Of a DNA stretch of 64,000 bases, positions 36,223 through 44,988 are shown piece by piece. The notes beneath the pieces are model-generated. The model worked only from the letters and a program-made list of their open reading frames with translations. It made no database searches and was not told the DNA's origin. The position numbers were made by a program, and so were the translations under genes. Each line of letters starts with the position of its first letter. The stretch's first letter is position 1. Origin of the DNA: an uncultured Chloroflexia bacterium (GTDB lineage Bacteria; Chloroflexota; Chloroflexia; QHBQ01; JADMIH01); assembly GCA_963797095.1 (NCBI GenBank), contig CAWCNY010000006.1, positions 896,001 to 960,000 on the forward strand. Direction: 5' to 3'.

Positions 36223-38088
36223 TTACTTATCTTGAACCTGGGCTGCGGTTGCCGCCAATCCCGCGCGACGTAGCACCCATCCACCCAGTACCATCATGCC
36301 CGCAGCGAAGCCGAGCCACATTGGCAGGGAAGAAGGTCCAGCCCCCGTTGTCGGGCTTACCACAGGCGGTGCGCCCTGGCCGGTGGAGGGGTTGCCGCCG
36401 GCGGCCTCACTGCCGGTCGAGTCACCGCCTGAACTGGCATCAATTATGCCGTTGCCGTCATTGTCAGGGGGAGGCGCGGGAGTGGGCGCAGGGGTAGCTT
36501 GAGTCTCGACAGTTGGCTTTTGGTCGCCTGCCGAAGAATTGTCTCCGGTCCCTTTTTCAACGGTTGGGGACGGTGTCTCAGTAGGCACGGAGGTCGGGAT
36601 GGGCGCGATAGTTGCCACGTTCGTGATAACCGGCACAGGGACCGCGCCCGTAGCCTGAGCGGGTGGTACAGGCACTTCACTGGTGGTTCTAGGGTCGGGT
36701 GCGAGCGTGCTTGGTTCCGACGTGTCAACCGCCTGTGGCGCAAACGTGGTACCTACCGGATTGGGCGCTAACGATGTGCCGCCCGCGGGCGTGTTGGTAG
36801 CGCTTGGTGGCAGCGAGGGTCCTTGCACACTGGACTCGGATTGAATTGGGGCACCGCCCGCGGCCTCACCACCTTGCGATTCGGCGGTCACGTTGTTGGG
36901 CTGTAAGTCTTTCTGTTCGCCGGTCGGCGCGGGCGCGCTCTCGCTCACCTGCGCGTTTCCACGTTGCGACTCTTGCTTGGCTCCCTGGCTATCTTGCGTA
37001 TCACTTGACTGCGGGGTCTGCGAAGAAGGCATTGAGCGATGCGGCTGCTGGCCTTCGTCCTTCGATTCGCCCGAAGTGGCCCCCTTAGAAGATGTTACCT
37101 CGGTGGGGGCGGGAATGGGCGTATCCGTGTCCGGAACAGTCGTTGGGGAGGGCGGCGCGGTGGTGGCTGTAGCTGACGGAAGGGTTGTAGGCGTATCCGT
37201 CGGAGGGGGTTCAGGTGTATCTGTGGCTGCGGAGCTTGGCGTACCTTTGTGCTCAAAGCCGGGCGGCTCGGTGGTTGCGGTGGGCGGTGCGGGAGGCAGC
37301 CCTCCCCCCTTGCTACTCACAGGTGTGGCGGTGGGGATTACAGGCTGGGGGGTGTCGGTGGGCGGAGCCGGAATGGCCGTTGCCGTTGCCTGCGGCTCGC
37401 TTGTAGGTGTGGCGTCCGCGCCTGACCCATCTTGCCCGGTGGCCCATACCAGAGCTTGCCCCAACGGCCCACCGAAAACCGTGCCATAAGGCAGGTAAAC
37501 GGTAAGGTCGTTTACCGATCTGTTTGTCACCTGAAGCGCACCGCTGCCCAATGACGGGTTTTGCGTTGAGGGTGTAAGAGTGAGCGGTGCGACGCTTGCC
37601 TGCCCGGATTGAACCAGGTTCAGCAGATTTGTGCCTTCGGGTATCCAGCTTGGAATGCCTGGAGAGGTAACGGCGGCCTCACCAATTCGTTCGGCAGTTG
37701 CATGGTTGCTCGACTGCCAGTTGCTGTCCTGCACCCACCATATCGCCAGCGCCACCTGGTACGGTTCGCTCTCCGCATAGCCCCAGTCGATGCCGTAGTA
37801 GAGGGCTGTGCGTACCCTGTCCGCCGCCAGCGGTTGCGAAGCCAGGGGAAGAGACCCGGCGCTCAGATTGGTGCCGGGACTCAGAGAAATAGCCTGAACG
37901 GTGATTGTGCCGGTGCCGCCCGCCGGTATGGTTACCGAGTAGCCTGGCACCGAGTGGAGTGGGGCTGCCGATCCGGCACTTGCCGGTGAGCCAAGAACGA
38001 ACGCTATACAAATGACGCAAGCCACCAAAAACTGTAGCGGAATTGTGAGAAACCGGGGCTTTTGCAACGTTGGCCTACCTTTCAGCAA
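36223..38088 (-). CDS. Secreted P/T/S-rich surface protein with sortase-like sorting signal
   Basis: Signal peptide, globular N-domain, long PT/S-rich stalk, C-terminal SPTTG + TM + RR. Confidence 0.75.
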   Translation of the reverse strand: MLKGRPTLQKPRFLTIPLQFLVACVICIAFVLGSPASAGSAAPLHSVPGYSVTIPAGGTGTITVQAISLSPGTNLSAGSLPLASQPLAADRVRTALYYGIDWGYAESEPYQVALAIWWVQDSNWQSSNHATAERIGEAAVTSPGIPSWIPEGTNLLNLVQSGQASVAPLTLTPSTQNPSLGSGALQVTNRSVNDLTVYLPYGTVFGGPLGQALVWATGQDGSGADATPTSEPQATATAIPAPPTDTPQPVIPTATPVSSKGGGLPPAPPTATTEPPGFEHKGTPSSAATDTPEPPPTDTPTTLPSATATTAPPSPTTVPDTDTPIPAPTEVTSSKGATSGESKDEGQQPHRSMPSSQTPQSSDTQDSQGAKQESQRGNAQVSESAPAPTGEQKDLQPNNVTAESQGGEAAGGAPIQSESSVQGPSLPPSATNTPAGGTSLAPNPVGTTFAPQAVDTSEPSTLAPDPRTTSEVPVPPAQATGAVPVPVITNVATIAPIPTSVPTETPSPTVEKGTGDNSSAGDQKPTVETQATPAPTPAPPPDNDGNGIIDASSGGDSTGSEAAGGNPSTGQGAPPVVSPTTGAGPSSLPMWLGFAAGMMVLGGWVLRRAGLAATAAQVQDK

Positions 38089-38200: not shown

Positions 38201-38229
38201 TTGATTCCGGGGCTGATTTGTGATATATT
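38201..38229 (+). promoter_or_regulatory. Sigma70-type promoter of the rpoA-like gene
   Basis: TTGATT-17 bp-TATATT with extended -10 TG (38221-38222). Confidence 0.6.
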
Positions 38230-38294
38230 ATAAGGTCGAAGGTGAATCTTCATGCCTTGCGATGTCTGTTTTGATTATCCCTGGGGGTGCTTCT

Positions 38295-39302
38295 TTGTTT
38301 GATGTAAATTTGCCTGAAATAACGCGCGACACCGGCGGTCACAACTACAGCCGCTACCGTATCGAACCTCTCCAACCCGGTTGGGGCACTACGCTTGGCG
38401 CGAGTTTGCGCCGTATCATGATTTCCTCCTTGCGAGGAGTTGCAGTTACCGGCCTTCGGTTGGCCGAATTGCCCGATGATCCCAGCGAGATCGCCGGGAT
38501 CGAAGAGAACCTGATAGACCTTGTCTTGAACGTCAAGCAGTTGCGCTTCCGCTACTCCGGCGATGGGAGCGCGGCCCAGGCGAACGATCAGTACCATATT
38601 GCTCTCAGCTACCCGAACGAAGAGGCTGGAGAGATAACAGGTGAGTACCTGGAACTGCCTGAGGACATTGAGCTTACCAACCCGGAGCTGGTGATTGCCA
38701 CGGGCACCGGTGGCGGCACGCCCTTTGAGCTTGAACTGCTGGTAGAGACCGGGATCGGGTATGAGACAGCCGAGAACCGTCTGAGCATCCCTGACGATAT
38801 GATCCCCGTGGATGCGATGTATACGCCCATCCCCCGCGTGAACTATGTCGTGGAGCACACCCGCGTGGGCCAGATGACCGACTATGATCGCCTGTTGCTC
38901 GAAGTGTGGACCGACGGCACGATCCAGCCCGACGATGCTGTGAGCCAGGCAGCGCGCATCCTTACGCAGTACGCAACCTCGGTGGCGACCTATGGCCGCG
39001 ATATGGCAGACCTCGGTATCGAGGAACCGCCCGCGCCCGTAGAGGACGACACCAACCGCTCTATCGAGGTGCTCAACCTGAGCATGAGAACCACCAACGC
39101 GCTAAAACGCGCCAACATCACCACCATTGCCCAGGTGCTATCACTGACCGATAACGATTTGCTCCACCTTCGCAACTTTGGTGCCAAGTCGCTTGACGAG
39201 TTGCGCGATGCCCTCACGGCCCACGGCTACGGTCCTAAACTCGATGCCGCCTCAGGCGAAGATGAAGGCGAAGAGGAAGACACAGACGTAGACGAAAGCT
39301 AG
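38295..39302 (+). CDS. rpoA: DNA-directed RNA polymerase subunit alpha (stand-alone, divergent copy)
   Basis: IEPLQPGWGTTLGASLRR, IPVDAMYTPI, TRVGQMTDYDRLLLEVWTDG, alphaCTD LSMRTTNALKRANI...RNFGAKS. TTG start after GGGGGTG (ATG 38262 is an alternative). Confidence 0.93.
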   Translation: MFDVNLPEITRDTGGHNYSRYRIEPLQPGWGTTLGASLRRIMISSLRGVAVTGLRLAELPDDPSEIAGIEENLIDLVLNVKQLRFRYSGDGSAAQANDQYHIALSYPNEEAGEITGEYLELPEDIELTNPELVIATGTGGGTPFELELLVETGIGYETAENRLSIPDDMIPVDAMYTPIPRVNYVVEHTRVGQMTDYDRLLLEVWTDGTIQPDDAVSQAARILTQYATSVATYGRDMADLGIEEPPAPVEDDTNRSIEVLNLSMRTTNALKRANITTIAQVLSLTDNDLLHLRNFGAKSLDELRDALTAHGYGPKLDAASGEDEGEEEDTDVDES

Positions 39303-39321
39303 CACGCGAATATGCAAAGAC

Positions 39322-39354
39322 AGACCCAGGCCACTACGGCCCGGGTCTTTTTTT
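39322..39354 (+). terminator. Rho-independent terminator after rpoA
   Basis: AGACCC-AGGCC-loop-GGCC-CGGGTCT followed by a T-run. Confidence 0.75.
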
Positions 39355-40704: not shown

Positions 40705-41451
40705 TTACCTGTACATACCGCGCATGCTGTTGAGCCTGATCTTCAGCAGGCCGAGGAAAGCGCGTGTGGCATCGCGTATCACGCGCACCTTGGTGCCGCG
40801 CTCGTCATGCCAGTGCACAGGCACTTCCTTGATGCGCAATCCGTGCTTCTGCGCGACAAACAACACCTCCGCGTCAAAGCTCCAATCGTCGATGATGGAG
40901 CGCGAGAAAAGCTCTTGCGCGGCGGCGTGGGTGAAACACTTGAACCCACATGTTATATCTGAAATGCCTCGCGTGGCGATCCTGTTGGTCAGCCATGTGA
41001 ACACCTTGCCCATACTCTCGCGCCAGAGGGGTTGATGGCGCTCCAGCACCGCGCCCTTCATTTTTCTGGAGCCGATCACAACATCGTAACCTTCGTCAAA
41101 CCAGTGCCAGAATTTGGCGATTTCGTCAGGCGGGGTGGACAGATCCGCATCGGTGAACAGCACAACCTCGCCCCTGGCTGCCAGCATACCCACCTTCAGC
41201 GCGTGCCCTTTGCCCCTGTTCGGGCTTTCCTCAAGCACACGCACATCCTCGCCGCTCCCCAGCAGTTCGCGCGATAGTTGTGCCGAGTCATCGGTCGAGC
41301 CATCGTCCACGACGACAAATTCAACACTGTACTTCTGACCCCGAAAATAATCGGCAAGCAGGGGCAGTGTGCGCCGCATTCGTCTAGCCTCGTTGTAGAT
41401 CGGCACCACTACCGATAATCTTGGACTGGTTGCGTCAAGCTTATTGCTCAC
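40705..41451 (-). CDS. GT2 polyprenyl-phosphate glycosyltransferase (dolichyl-phosphate beta-glucosyltransferase-like)
   Basis: SVVVPIYNE, VVDDGSTD, NRGKG, FTDAD, DITCGFK, FDAEVL. Confidence 0.9.
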   Translation of the reverse strand: MSNKLDATSPRLSVVVPIYNEARRMRRTLPLLADYFRGQKYSVEFVVVDDGSTDDSAQLSRELLGSGEDVRVLEESPNRGKGHALKVGMLAARGEVVLFTDADLSTPPDEIAKFWHWFDEGYDVVIGSRKMKGAVLERHQPLWRESMGKVFTWLTNRIATRGISDITCGFKCFTHAAAQELFSRSIIDDWSFDAEVLFVAQKHGLRIKEVPVHWHDERGTKVRVIRDATRAFLGLLKIRLNSMRGMYR

Positions 41452-41485
41452 AGTTTGTGAGTTCCTTTGTCACGGAATTAACCCC

Positions 41486-42724
41486 TTACCCTTGGATGAC
41501 CTCTGCAACCTTGTCAGCATCTGCGAGAGCTGTCTTCCTGGCGATGGCTGCCAACTCGGCAATCCGGCGGGACTCCTCTTCACGTGCAGCCCATAGTTCT
41601 CTCAACTTCGCTTTCATTTCTTCGGGGTCCGGTTGCTGCCGCTCAATTTCGATAACCCAGTGGTCGAGATCAAGCTCCTCCATGAAGCCTCGCACTTTGT
41701 GCGCGTAAGATAGAGCGATCATCGGCACGGCCTGCGCCGCCGCGAATATGAGGGCGTGCAGCCTCATGCTCACCAGCAGATCGGCCTTGCCCACATAGCC
41801 TGAGAACTTGCCCGGAGTATGCTCCAGCTTCGCGTAGATTATCATTTCCTGTGGCACTCCCATCGCCAGAGCCGCCTTCCCCACGACGGCCAGCATCTCT
41901 TCATCGCGGTCGGGCCAGAGGGGTAGCAGCACCGCTCGCGCCCCGAATTCCTCAACCGCTACCTTGATAGAGCCTGCCACCCCCTCCACCAACCTTTCGA
42001 GGCGGCCCGGCTCCTGTCTCCACTCGGTGCCCAGCCTGTGCCGCAGGCTTACCGGCAATAGATAGTGAAGCCCCAACCCCGGCCTGTTGGCAGGTAGATG
42101 CCGCACGCAGAAGATCACCACAGGTTTGCCATCGCCAGGCCAGTTGTCCTCCCCCAGTTCGGGTTTGAGCAAGATGGCGGGGTCTGCCGTTACCTTCACC
42201 CTGTGGGGAGGCACCCCGGCGCCCACCAGCAGCCGCTTCGAGGCCACATCGCGGACGCTGAAGTAATCCGCAGATCGGCAAATGAAGCGCGCCAGCAACC
42301 TGCCGAGCAGTGTCCAGAGCGGTTCCGCACCGAGGCCCCAACCGATCACCTTCAGGCCGAGCAACTTCGCCAGTGCTATATGCACCGCATAAATAGGGAG
42401 ATTGTACACACTCGTGCCGTCCTGAATAAGGCCTCCTCCCCCCAATATGAGAGCTTTGGCCCCGGCCAGGGCGCGGATCGTGCCTCGATTGAAGGGGTTG
42501 CGCGGCACGCTTGGAACTCCGAGCCGCCCGCCCGTCTTGCCGGGGTTGGTCGATATGGCTACCAGGTCATCGAAGCCGCGCTCTCTGAGGCTCTCGATGA
42601 TTACCTGCACAAGCGCCTCATCCCCCGTGTTGTTGCTCCCATACCACCCCAGGATCACTATTCGTTTGCGCTCGCTACTCGCTACTTTCTTTCCCCCCCA
42701 CTTGCTCGCCGCGTGCCTGGGCAA
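41486..42724 (-). CDS. Polysaccharide pyruvyl transferase (CsaB-like)
   Basis: GWYGSNNTGDEA, LGGGGLIQD, SVRD, TADP, SMRLHALI, SYAHKV. Confidence 0.88.
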   Translation of the reverse strand: MPRHAASKWGGKKVASSERKRIVILGWYGSNNTGDEALVQVIIESLRERGFDDLVAISTNPGKTGGRLGVPSVPRNPFNRGTIRALAGAKALILGGGGLIQDGTSVYNLPIYAVHIALAKLLGLKVIGWGLGAEPLWTLLGRLLARFICRSADYFSVRDVASKRLLVGAGVPPHRVKVTADPAILLKPELGEDNWPGDGKPVVIFCVRHLPANRPGLGLHYLLPVSLRHRLGTEWRQEPGRLERLVEGVAGSIKVAVEEFGARAVLLPLWPDRDEEMLAVVGKAALAMGVPQEMIIYAKLEHTPGKFSGYVGKADLLVSMRLHALIFAAAQAVPMIALSYAHKVRGFMEELDLDHWVIEIERQQPDPEEMKAKLRELWAAREEESRRIAELAAIARKTALADADKVAEVIQG

Positions 42725-43802
42725 TTCGCATGAACACTTGCAGGTAGCGGCGGGCGATTATGTCCCATGAGTACCGGCTGCGGACGAATTCGCGGGCCTG
42801 CTTGCCTAGCTCGGCGCGACGCTCGTCATCGGCAAGCAGGTCGAGTATCGTAGTTACGTATGTGTCGGTGTCCAGGGGGTCGATCAATATGCCGTTCTGG
42901 CCGGGCACTATGGCTTCCGGTATGCCATCCAGTTTGGAAGCCACCACATAGCGTCCCGCTGCCGCCGCTTCCAGGGCCACCAGGCCGAAGCCCTCTATAT
43001 CGTTTTGCACGGGAATATTAGGCATGATGAAAAGGTCGGCCACACTATAGGCTGCCCTCAGCGTATCGTCGTCCACTCTTCCCAGCAAGGCCACGTGGTT
43101 GCCCAGGTGCAGGGAGGCTATGCGTGTCTCGATCAGGTCGCGTTGCGGCCCTTCACCCACGATTAGGTAGGAAATATCATCGCGCTGCGCCAGCAGCCTC
43201 GGCATGATCTCGGTCAGGAAGTGCACTACACCCTTGCGCTCGATCAGCCTACCTACGGTGAGCAGCACTTTGCGGCCCCGGACCATCTTGCCCGCGTGGT
43301 TCTGAATATTGCGCATCCCAGCCGACGTGAACTGGTCGGCGAACTCCACCATATTGACCCCGTTTGGAATTACCTCGCACAGCGCCGCCGGAACGCCACG
43401 CCTGATGCACTGGGTGCGCGTGTAGCTGCTCACGCAGATGATTTTGTCAATGCGCCTGAGGCAGCGCGGGATCAGCCACTGGTAGAACCGGTTGTCGTAA
43501 GTAATATCGAGGCCATGCACGGTTACTACCACAGGCACGCGCAGGAGGGTGCGTAGGGCCAACCCAAGAGGGGCGAGCAATGCATCCGACAGGTGGATCA
43601 GTTTGATGTGATTCGACCGGGGCACGGTGAGCACCGCGCGCAGGAAGGCGTACACAACGAAGAACGGCACGAACAGCGTCGAGCCGCCCCAGTAGATCGT
43701 CGAGGTTGGTGTGAGACGCCCGGTCTCCTTGGTCAGGCTCTGGCTCAACTTCTGCATCCCGCCCACCGAAGGCGGGTGCTTTCGTGTAATGAAAAGTATC
43801 AT
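42675..43802 (-). CDS. GT4 family glycosyltransferase
   Basis: PPSVGGM, TVHGLD, IPNGV, VGRLIERKG, EGFGLVALEA. Confidence 0.92.
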   Translation of the reverse strand: MILFITRKHPPSVGGMQKLSQSLTKETGRLTPTSTIYWGGSTLFVPFFVVYAFLRAVLTVPRSNHIKLIHLSDALLAPLGLALRTLLRVPVVVTVHGLDITYDNRFYQWLIPRCLRRIDKIICVSSYTRTQCIRRGVPAALCEVIPNGVNMVEFADQFTSAGMRNIQNHAGKMVRGRKVLLTVGRLIERKGVVHFLTEIMPRLLAQRDDISYLIVGEGPQRDLIETRIASLHLGNHVALLGRVDDDTLRAAYSVADLFIMPNIPVQNDIEGFGLVALEAAAAGRYVVASKLDGIPEAIVPGQNGILIDPLDTDTYVTTILDLLADDERRAELGKQAREFVRSRYSWDIIARRYLQVFMRIAQARGEQVGGKESSE

Positions 43803-43962
43803 TCGTTCTCTGCGAGCAAGCTCATGCGGATTGCTCCGTTTATTTTACCTTATGAGCGCAAATCCACAGAGGCAACTGTATTGCGTATTGCGTACTTCGT
43901 ACTGCTTATTTTTGTTTGCTTGAACATTTACGCAATACGCAATACGAAGTACGCAGTATGTA

Positions 43963-44988
43963 CTATAGCCTCGTGCTGATCGCCCCCCATATGCCGATGC
44001 CTATCAGCGACCAGAGCCTTGCCAGCAGGGCGGCGGCTGTCGCCGCGGGTGCGGGCACGCCGAGCACCGCCAGCAGCGTCACGATGATGAACTCCCTCAC
44101 GCCCAACCCCTGCGGCACGAAGATCGCCATGTAACCGCCCACCCACGCCACAGTAAATATGCCTGTGACCACCGGCAGGTAAAGAAGGGAAATATCGGGG
44201 TAGACGGCGGCCAGCAGCATGTAGAAGATCGCGCCGAAGGCCAGCCAGTTGAGCGCGAAAGGAATTGTTATTCGTACCACGTCTGCCGTCGACAGGCGCA
44301 CTCCCAGCGGCTTTCGCCCGAACCTGACCAGCAGCCAATCCACCAATCTGAAGAAGATGTCAGGTCGCCACACGGCGGCGATAATGCCTATGGCGGCTGG
44401 TATCACGGCCCACAAAGGCGGGTCGGGCCATGCCGCCAGGCTCAGACTTGCAACCGCTATCGCCCCTAGCAGGTTAAGAGCCGACTCGATCACCACGCTC
44501 ACCGCCGTCATTAGCTTGGGCACTCCTGCCTGCTCGGCCAGGTACACACGGCTGACCGCGTGCCACATAGAGCCTGGGAGGAACCCCGCCAGCGACGAAT
44601 AATAGACCATCCTCACGCTCTTGCGGAAGGGGAGAGGGTAGCCAAGCCACCTCATGATCTGCCACCACGACCACACCGGCAACGGCCCACGTGCCACCAG
44701 CAGCAGGAACGCCAGCACCAGCCAGCCCGGCTCCAGCCTCCACTCATATGATGCGAACTTGGGTCCCAGGTCATACAGCGCCAGCCCGAAGAAGATCAGC
44801 ACCAGCGCGGTGATCGCCACCTGCGCCCACCTGCGCACTCGCGCATCCGCGATCCAGCGCCTTACTCCATCTATACTCCTGGCTTTCAACTTCCACGTCC
44901 TGGCGTGGGTCTTGCTGTACAAATACGACGGCGCATGTACCAAGTATATCATCTTGCACACGTACATTCGCGCTTGTAGCCCTTTCAC
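43963..44988 (-). CDS. UPF0104/LPG-synthase-TM family flippase-like membrane protein
   Basis: FLPGSMW...R, PQGLGVRE, multiple TM helices. Start uncertain. Confidence 0.8.
   Translation of the reverse strand: MKGLQARMYVCKMIYLVHAPSYLYSKTHARTWKLKARSIDGVRRWIADARVRRWAQVAITALVLIFFGLALYDLGPKFASYEWRLEPGWLVLAFLLLVARGPLPVWSWWQIMRWLGYPLPFRKSVRMVYYSSLAGFLPGSMWHAVSRVYLAEQAGVPKLMTAVSVVIESALNLLGAIAVASLSLAAWPDPPLWAVIPAAIGIIAAVWRPDIFFRLVDWLLVRFGRKPLGVRLSTADVVRITIPFALNWLAFGAIFYMLLAAVYPDISLLYLPVVTGIFTVAWVGGYMAIFVPQGLGVREFIIVTLLAVLGVPAPAATAAALLARLWSLIGIGIWGAISTRL

Follow-up and report, generated by a model that had tools for sequence, protein, structure and literature searches.

The window analyzed here, the whole stretch of 64,000 nucleotides at G000:C6:896001-960000 from an uncultured Chloroflexia bacterium, contains a complete and stand-alone paralog of rpoA, the gene for RNA polymerase's alpha subunit, whose presence we could confirm; we designate this paralog A2, and the rpoA located in the ribosomal-protein operon of the same genome A1. 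In almost all bacteria alpha is a homodimer, so that one sequence serves two different positions. We consider it probable, at roughly two chances in three, that in this lineage A1 and A2 constitute an oriented heterodimer, with A1 placed on the beta subunit and A2 on beta'. The two paralogs are conserved, the pair is old, the motif losses are complementary, both copies are under purifying selection, and there is a single beta and a single beta' subunit; from these observations we infer that the two proteins heterodimerize, that they do so in that orientation, and that both are present in the enzyme.

An earlier note on this DNA had proposed to look in the same genome for the canonical operon rpoA and for reciprocal changes in that copy. 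The operon copy does exist on the same contig, so that A2 is not the sole rpoA and a simple relocation of the gene could be rejected. The A1 gene (C6:674466-675830; L004:10467-11831), which encodes 454 amino acids (aa), lies ca. 259 kb from A2 in the context secY-adk-map-rpsM-rpsK-rpsD-rpoA-rplQ-truA-rplM, and the A1 and A2 proteins are 42–44% identical. The source genome is 93% complete in 8 contigs and holds one rpoB and one rpoC, all the matches to each of these genes lying within a single open frame. The order was sampled with 31 genomes of the families f1 (to which the window belongs), f2, and f3, counts that include the unpublished G016 and G026, on which no statement about sequences relies. 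Two rpoA matches were found in 25 of the 31, in all three families, among which 25 are two genomes (G001 and G008) whose second match is a partial frame untyped as A1 or A2. All 9 of the genomes at least 90% complete have both copies; the 6 without a second match are 62–78% complete. In the 19 genomes for which both genes were fetched and typed, the A1-type gene is always beside rpsD and rplQ, and the A2-type never. At the level of the class, with 151 Chloroflexia genomes sampled, full-length second copies were confined to this order plus part of another family, f9.

To compare the copies we used an alignment of 84 RpoA rows plus 123 database representatives, in which 63 columns reached a conservation of 80% or more among 153 background sequences. 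Among those columns A2 departs in 10 and A1 in 6, with one column common to both. Residues are numbered as in E. coli, with query residue 42 set to residue 22 of the E. coli chain and query residue 251 to residue 227, which offsets agree with the landmarks Arg45, Lys200, and Arg191. The features of A2 that bear on the comparison, in window coordinates, are the following:

38295..39302, plus strand: rpoA paralog A2, 335 aa from its most likely TTG start, with the stop codon TAG at 39300-39302.
38382..38384, plus strand: Trp at the dimer-interface position (E. coli Phe35), present as Trp in 24/24 A2 sequences.
38394..38414, plus strand: LGASLRR (E. coli 39-45), in which Asn41 is replaced by Ala and Arg44 and Arg45 are kept.
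38475..38489, plus strand: DDPSE, substituted for HEF-S/T (E. coli 66-70), within segment 65-75, which beta protects.
38487..38825, plus strand: insert domain (Pfam RNA_pol_A_bac), degenerate, at 54 bits, with the match beginning at profile position 12.
38505..38510, plus strand: EN, substituted for ED (E. coli 76-77), immediately beyond that beta-protected segment.
38859..38894, plus strand: TRVGQMTDYDRL (E. coli 190-201), with Arg191 and an Arg equivalent to Lys200, from column conservation.
39042..39218, plus strand: alpha C-terminal domain (alpha-CTD) with conserved DNA-binding columns, from Pfam and column conservation.
39252..39299, plus strand: short acidic C-terminal tail, from the translation.

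The departures LGASLRR, DDPSE, and EN, to which the earlier note had drawn attention, were read correctly and are real when set against the 153 other RpoA, where Asn41 is conserved at 88%, His66 at 87%, Glu67 at 89%, Phe68 at 80%, and Asp77 at 92%; at Asn41, His66, Glu67, Phe/Tyr68, and Asp77 the A2 of the window has Ala, Asp, Asp, Pro, and Asn. Asn41, which belongs to a beta-protected segment, is kept in 4 of the 24 A2 and in all 23 A1. His66, Glu67, and Phe68 are each kept in none of the 24 A2, and HEF is kept in 23/23 A1. Asp77 is lost from the A2 of f1 (13/13), is kept in those of f2 and f3 (11/11), and is kept in every A1 (23/23). Arg45 persists in 21/24 A2, with Lys in the remaining 3, and Lys86 in 24/24.

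The reciprocal changes are found in A1, which keeps HEF and Asn41 and is without the Arg191-Val-Gly motif that A2 retains. Arg191, the beta' contact, is kept in 24/24 A2 and in 0/23 A1; in the same beta' region Gly193 is kept in 24/24 A2 and in ca. 17% of the A1, and Thr196 in 23/24 A2 and 2/23 A1. The A1 of f1 has, moreover, an acidic insertion of 20–30 residues at the Arg191 site and Gln for the Lys200-equivalent in 13/13 sequences. Single-copy Chloroflexia RpoA, for their part, keep both HEF and Arg191 in 17/17. That the A2 of the window retains TRVGQMTDYDRL and, in the alpha-CTD, the residues of columns R, N, N, G, and S had also been described correctly: of the conserved alpha-CTD columns, R, N, L, N, G, and E are kept in 24/24 A2 and S in 19/24. 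We take R, N, N, G, and S to be R265, N268, N294, G296, and S299 of E. coli. The DNA-binding columns are the same in the alpha-CTDs of A1 and A2.

Domain scores are split in the same way as the motifs. With Pfam the insert domain reaches 49–76 bits in A2 as against 100–110 in A1 (54 and 110 for the A2 and the A1 of the window genome), a single-copy relative scoring 108, and the dimerization domain 78–82 bits in A2, 64 in the A1 of f1 and f3, and 86 in the single-copy relative. At the dimer-interface position 35, where A2 has Trp, Tyr or Phe is found in 115/124 background sequences and Tyr in 17/17 single-copy Chloroflexia; the A1 of f1 has a small aliphatic residue there in 12/13, and Thr38 is changed to Ile in 5/5 A1 of f3. 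The C-terminal acidic residues number ca. 120 in A1 and ca. 16 in A2, and the linkers differ as well. The A1 proteins of f1 are 444–476 aa long, with an acidic tail of some 110–120 residues past the alpha-CTD that ends in KPRSKRK; those of f2 and f3, at 345–367 aa, have neither the acidic insertion nor the long acidic tail. The single beta' of the genome keeps Asp and Glu at what we take, from E. coli motifs, to be the positions D410 and D413, just before a conserved NRAPxLHR motif.

The roles of these residues have been published. Beta protects residues 30-55 and 65-75 of alpha, and beta' protects 175-185 and 195-210; Arg45 is required to bind beta; the binding of beta' is affected by Lys86, by Val173, and by insertions at 180 and 200, and is abolished when two residues are inserted at 200; and Phe35, Thr38, and Ile46 are required for dimerization (PMC3294249). 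Arg191 of alpha forms salt bridges with D410 and D413 of beta', on the domain that holds the catalytic carboxylates, and an E. coli R191C mutant is temperature-sensitive (PMC9177976), its polymerase being assembled but unstable (PMC8092217). The changes in A2 fall in or next to the beta-protected segments, and the residue lost from A1 is that published beta' contact, both of which circumstances agree with the proposal of the earlier note that A2 has relaxed its beta interface and may occupy the alphaII position. Since Arg191 is present only in A2, A2 is the sole alpha able to make the beta' contact, and an intact beta-protected surface is present only in A1.

We propose the following scheme. 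An old duplication of rpoA in the ancestor of this Chloroflexia order would have allowed the copies to split between them the two assembly roles that the one sequence of a homodimer normally serves. A1 would have retained the determinants facing beta—Asn41, His66-Glu67-Phe68, and an intact insert domain—and given up Arg191-Val-Gly, the motif in contact with beta'; A2 would have retained Arg191 and the motif surrounding it, the beta-facing determinants and the insert domain having decayed. The core enzyme would most likely be A1-A2-beta-beta', with A1 at alphaI and A2 at alphaII, and the A1-A2 heterodimer would nucleate the assembly of the single beta and the single beta'.

We predicted the structure of a complex between the A1 and the A2 N-terminal domains, using for each the alignment of its own clade. 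The heterodimer, which was the only pairing modeled, scored 0.53, versus 0.00 for the best control, with an agreement between runs of at least 71% of the contacts and a partner pLDDT (predicted local distance difference test) of at least 76; the score mark was reached by 58/80 solved complexes and by 2/110 mismatched pairs, and at scores of 0.60 or below by 7/80 and by both mismatches. This prediction lends weak support to the pairing of A1 with A2; alpha dimers have already been solved, so that the score may reflect that likeness alone, and it does not separate a heterodimer from a homodimer.

The strongest indirect support for the functional interpretation of A1 and A2 comes from family f9, where the division has been repeated independently. 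Seven genomes of f9 have two copies (G114, G120, G148, G136, G142, G144, and G118; loci L062-L075), and the seven stand-alone copies form a separate clade nested among the operon copies of f9, f13, and f10. When the f9 stand-alone copies and A2 were placed in one clade, the approximately unbiased (AU) test gave p = 0.027; the tree was already known when this group was defined, a circumstance that weakens the test, and on that result, with that reservation, we rejected a common origin of the two. In f9 it is the operon copy that keeps the Arg191 motif (7/7) and has HEF altered in 6/7 (QET in three, and EEF, QEF, and HDF), the seventh having Arg45 changed to Gln and Asn41 to Ser. In the stand-alone copy, HEF and Arg45 are retained in 7/7, His at 35 and Ser or Pro at 38 are found in 7/7 as well, and the Arg191 motif has degenerated: Arg-Val-Gly is clear in G136 only and ambiguous in G144. 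Five single-copy f9 genomes retain all the determinants.

We accordingly regard f9 as a second and independent duplication that divided the same two sets of determinants with the gene location reversed. That oriented heterodimers evolved repeatedly by the same route—with HEF, Asn41, and Arg45 going to the beta side and the Arg191 motif to the beta' side in both duplications, and with the operon copy taking the beta side within the window's order and the beta' side within f9—is a broader proposition, which we advance tentatively and at somewhat less than even odds.

The history of the pair was studied with a tree of the 84 RpoA rows over 341 columns, which was obtained by a quick IQ-TREE search with Shimodaira–Hasegawa-like approximate likelihood-ratio (SH-aLRT) support only, and into which no unpublished or duplicate loci entered. 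All 24 A2 rows fall into a single clade (SH-aLRT 100; stem of 0.73 substitutions per site) and the 23 A1 rows into another (SH-aLRT 99; stem of 0.32). Both clades share the same internal order, with f2 branching first and f3 joined to f1; since the branching of A1 and A2 thus matches, the pair is older than the split of the three families and was inherited together. Forcing A1 and A2 into one clade costs 4.4 log-likelihood units and is not rejected by the AU test (p = 0.317), which outcome makes the tree compatible with a duplication within the lineage.

Selection was estimated by the Nei–Gojobori method on 18 genome pairs. The ratio of nonsynonymous to synonymous substitution rates, omega, was 0.025–0.24 for A2 in the 16 pairs with a finite synonymous distance (dS); for A1, where 16 pairs gave data, it was 0.03–0.21. 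Both genes are under purifying selection, and the neutral evolution of A2 that the earlier note had asked about does not occur. The A2 frame is intact in 24/24 sequences. The G+C content (GC) of A2 is 0.580, and 0.691 at third codon positions (GC3), compared with 0.587 for A1 and with a genome median GC3 of 0.702. Codon adaptation, ranked among 1431 long open reading frames (ORFs), is similar in the two genes, at 0.525 for A2 (70th percentile) and 0.538 for A1 (75th percentile).

Several points weigh against the arrangement with A1 on beta and A2 on beta'. The E. coli numbering is indirect, being based on alignment offsets and on landmark residues named in two papers. Gly169, next to a beta'-protected segment, is Asp in 23/24 A2 and is kept in 23/23 A1, so that the partition of the determinants is not perfectly clean. 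Arg45, on which beta binding hinges in E. coli and in which the two Francisella copies are unlike, is retained by A1 and A2 alike, in which circumstance the orientation must rest on other residues. The A1 of f2 has a normal dimerization-domain score, at 81.6 bits, and the placement of the A2 clade relative to A1 is not settled by the tree. Finally, because the R191C enzyme assembles and E. coli survives with it at low temperature, an enzyme built on an A1 homodimer is conceivable.

Such homodimers are the substance of the first rival explanation, according to which A1 and A2 would each form their own dimer and give two alternative polymerases, a housekeeping and a specialized core, whose CTDs and tails would recruit different activators or promoters, and whose ratio the A2 promoter would set. 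That the A2 gene is monocistronic and has a promoter-like site and a terminator to itself would suit this explanation, as would the divergent linkers and tails (ca. 120 acidic C-terminal residues versus ca. 16), the tolerance of E. coli to R191C at low temperature (PMC9177976), and the minor alpha1-homodimer form reported for Francisella (PMC3294249). We nevertheless consider two polymerases unlikely: either homodimer would be without a near-universal determinant at one of the two positions, the losses are complementary and not random, the alpha-CTD DNA-binding columns are identical in both copies, and the same partition has arisen twice, which recurrence regulatory specialization would not predict. 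A heterodimer in the opposite orientation, with A2 on beta at alphaI and A1 on beta' at alphaII, is clearly more improbable. A contact of A2 with beta through Arg45 is conceivable, A2 having kept Arg44, Arg45 (21/24), and Lys86, and the footprinting segments are coarse (PMC3294249); but Arg191, with its direct contact to beta', is kept only in A2, beta' keeps the acidic partners, HEF within the beta-protected segment is kept only in A1, and the A1 insertion lies between 180 and 200, the two positions at which in E. coli insertions abolish beta' binding.

The two remaining explanations deny A2 a regular place in the polymerase. A2 might act as an alpha-like decoy or regulator by which alpha, activators, or UP-element DNA would be titrated, which role its strongly degenerate insert domain (49–76 bits) and the location of its gene among envelope and transport genes would allow. 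We judge this very improbable, given that the three-domain architecture, the dimerization domain (78–82 bits), the beta'-contact motif, and the CTD columns are conserved across three families at an omega of ca. 0.1, and that A1 lacks Arg191 in every genome. The idea that A2 is a redundant, decaying duplicate or a recently acquired foreign rpoA, which its long stem of 0.73 substitutions per site and its unsettled position relative to A1 might suggest, is already largely refuted and can hardly be entertained. An omega well below 1 and the intact frame in 24/24 sequences led us to reject a pseudogene or neutral copy, and a genome-like composition (GC 0.580 and GC3 0.691 against 0.587 in A1 and a median GC3 of 0.702), together with a joint clade of A1 and A2 that the AU test does not exclude (p = 0.317), to reject a recent foreign acquisition; the A2 tree, in addition, mirrors that of A1. 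The oriented A1/A2 heterodimer is the explanation that we prefer, and the interpretation of the earlier note is in this sense supported, all the tests that it had suggested and that could be run pointing in its favor.

To our knowledge, Francisella is the only exception to the alpha homodimer studied biochemically so far. Its alpha1/alpha2 heterodimer was shown by biochemistry (PMC3294249), whereas the one proposed here is deduced from sequences; the chain B named alpha 2 of the Francisella structure in PDB entry 6wmp is among the database matches of A2. The two systems are alike in the following: every genome of the lineage has two non-identical rpoA, of which one belongs to the ribosomal-protein operon and the other does not; the substitutions in the beta and beta' determinants are complementary; and the operon copy is proposed to sit on beta and the other copy on beta'. 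Both branches are accelerated in Francisella; here the stems are 0.32 for A1 and 0.73 for A2. The present pair differs in belonging to another phylum, and to an independent duplication, and in the residues that mark the split, which in Francisella are a Gln at Arg45 in alpha2 and a Thr at Lys200 in alpha1, and here HEF plus Asn41 on the one hand and Arg191-Val-Gly, with the insertion, on the other, Arg45 being kept in both copies.

A 2011 paper lists rpoA duplications in three Chloroflexus species and in Streptomyces avermitilis, together with two recent identical duplicates; considers the Chloroflexus rpoA1 and rpoA2 paralogs as probably still equivalent; and predicts that more cases of duplication and subfunctionalization would be found (PMC3294249). 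The A1/A2 pair resembles that of Chloroflexus in that the duplication occurred in the class Chloroflexia and left one copy in the operon and one elsewhere; unlike the Chloroflexus pair, judged probably still equivalent, A1 and A2 have diverged in a complementary manner. Our full-text literature search yielded no paper on rpoA paralogs in Chloroflexia beyond that list of Chloroflexus species, and none on this order. The earlier note's term of an undescribed system does not hold, inasmuch as the kind of system had been described in Francisella and further cases had been predicted; what appears to be undescribed is the lineage, with different marker residues and an unusually clean reciprocal pattern.

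In the archaeal and eukaryotic platform formed by the alpha-like heterodimer of Rpo3 and Rpo11 (Rpb3 and Rpb11), the smaller partner Rpo11/Rpb11 is without an insert domain, and the decay of that domain in A2 goes in the same direction. The likeness extends to the asymmetry of the platform and to the larger partner's contact with the beta-like subunit through the Arg45-equivalent surface (PMC3294249). In A2, however, the insert domain is still complete and an alpha-CTD is present, and the split has no common descent with that of Rpo3/Rpo11 and no Rpo10 or Rpo12 partners. With the ordinary RpoA homodimer (TIGR02027) A2 shares the domain architecture and family scores above the cut-offs; it differs in its position outside the alpha operon, in being without HEF and Asn41, and in coexisting with an alpha that lacks Arg191.

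If the oriented heterodimer is real, a whole order of soil Chloroflexia would constitute a second natural system, and f9 a third, in which the two alpha positions could be studied separately; under the broader proposition of repeated evolution, nature would have performed twice the separation-of-function experiment that defines the residues needed only at alphaI or only at alphaII. The scheme predicts that His66-Glu67-Phe68 and Asn41 would be needed only against beta, and Arg191-Val-Gly only against beta'. A2, with its decaying insert domain, would then represent a bacterial step toward a reduced partner of the Rpb11/Rpo11 type, and two different alpha-CTDs and tails held at fixed positions would make position-specific regulation possible. 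On the practical side, rpoA is used as a single-copy marker, and annotation pipelines will find in these lineages two 'rpoA', one of them outside the ribosomal cluster.

As to the A2 gene itself, the protein is the full-length rpoA homolog that had been claimed, with Pfam matches to RNA_pol_L (PF01193, 77.7 bits), PF01000 (54.3), and the alpha-CTD (PF03118, 69.6), each of which exceeds its gathering score. Among the NCBIfam equivalogs for rpoA, it passes the cut-offs of two (NF003519, 288 versus 277; TIGR02027, 250.2 versus 227.8), and A2 falls below the cut-offs of six other rpoA equivalog models. The alpha-CTD of A2 also has a weak match to the model of the BREX kinase PglW. The signals around the coding sequence are the following:

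38201..38229, plus strand: promoter-like TTGATT and TATATT, with a 17-nt spacer containing TG; 9/12 consensus matches.
38283..38289, plus strand: Shine-Dalgarno-like GGGGGTG, ending 5 nt before the TTG at 38295.
39322..39354, plus strand: intrinsic terminator found by folding, a GC-rich hairpin at 39322-39348 followed by U7 to 39354.

The longest A2 frame extends from a GTG at 38220 to 39302 on the plus strand and encodes 360 aa; the true coding sequence, however, most likely begins at the TTG at 38295, which codon is residue 26 of that frame. We adopt the TTG because of the stops found upstream in orthologs, the position common to all of these, and the database representatives that begin there. 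The comparison comprised 13 genus orthologs, namely A2 and 12 others, of which others 9 have a stop codon within the 25 codons upstream of the TTG position; in four of those 9 (G004, G007, G009, and G018) no start codon other than that TTG follows the upstream stop. The TTG position is the sole start position common to all 13, and the database representatives likewise start at query residue 26. The GG codons at 38283-38289 are kept in 12/13 genus orthologs in spite of the stops just upstream in 9/12 of the others. The promoter-like site overlaps the GTG at 38220, which overlap speaks against the GTG as the start.

Of the promoter and terminator that the earlier note had attributed to A2, the terminator stands and the promoter does so only as a site that exists, promoter-like sites being not significantly more frequent than by chance (2 in the region versus 0.9 ± 0.9 in shuffles). 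The terminator is convincing: the minimum free energy is -33.3 kcal/mol over a 91-nt stretch (z = -3.43), and 0/200 shuffles fold as well. A simple terminator scan had overlooked the hairpin, which was revealed by folding. The A2 gene is monocistronic.

The surface protein and the major facilitator superfamily (MFS) gene that had been named as the flanks of A2 fared differently. The downstream neighbor is indeed a convergent MFS transporter gene; the upstream neighbor, a Pro/Thr-rich ORF of 621 aa (window 36223-38088, minus strand), is without a Pfam family, and may plausibly be a putative surface protein. The N-terminus of this ORF is signal-like, its C-terminus carries a hydrophobic anchor, and long stretches of it are rich in Pro, Thr, and Ser; it adjoins A2 throughout the genus at 34–43% identity. 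Beyond the MFS gene, a run of glycosyltransferase-type genes occupies 40705-44988 on the minus strand, with a GT2 gene at 40705-41451—the one gene of the run covered by the Pfam check—and then ORFs of 412, 375, and 341 aa; the order of A2, MFS, and glycosyltransferase-type genes is kept within the genus. The neighborhood of Pro/Thr-rich ORF, MFS, GT2, and glycosyltransferase-like genes is conserved in the genus only, the sole recurring similarity around A2 in f2 and f3 being the S-layer homology (SLH) domains of wall proteins, and no partner gene turned up among the conserved neighbors of A2 when the genus, f2, and f3 neighborhoods were compared.

The other second-copy 'matches' in Chloroflexia families were discarded as alpha-CTD-like helix-hairpin-helix domains in unrelated proteins. 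These domains sit in large proteins of 813–1390 aa, one of which has 11 repeats (G034:C1:654676-654849, G046:C6:14576-14740, G056:C92:314360-314527, and G040:C31:10796-10945; P0102 and P0122). In a sample of the phylum with 201 genomes at least 90% complete, 1 of the 178 outside the class (G177) has two strong rpoA matches; that genome belongs to another class of the phylum, family f26, and has 4% contamination.

An exhaustive search of 1.84 billion representatives returned, among the best 150, the A2 type only as P0001 and P0004 and as the fragments P0002, P0042, and P0107, most of the other best-150 representatives being ordinary RpoA at ca. 33–45% identity. The named records with the closest A2 orthologs are 'Chloroflexia bacterium' genomes assembled from soil or other metagenomes. 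Among the best 150 there are also RpoA other than A2 that are without HEF but have Arg191 (P0013, P0025, P0026, P0034, P0085, P0134, P0145, and P0146 among them), and RpoA with HEF but without Arg191 (P0005, P0020, P0031, P0078, P0110, P0115, and P0148 among them), which departures may represent split alpha pairs in further lineages.

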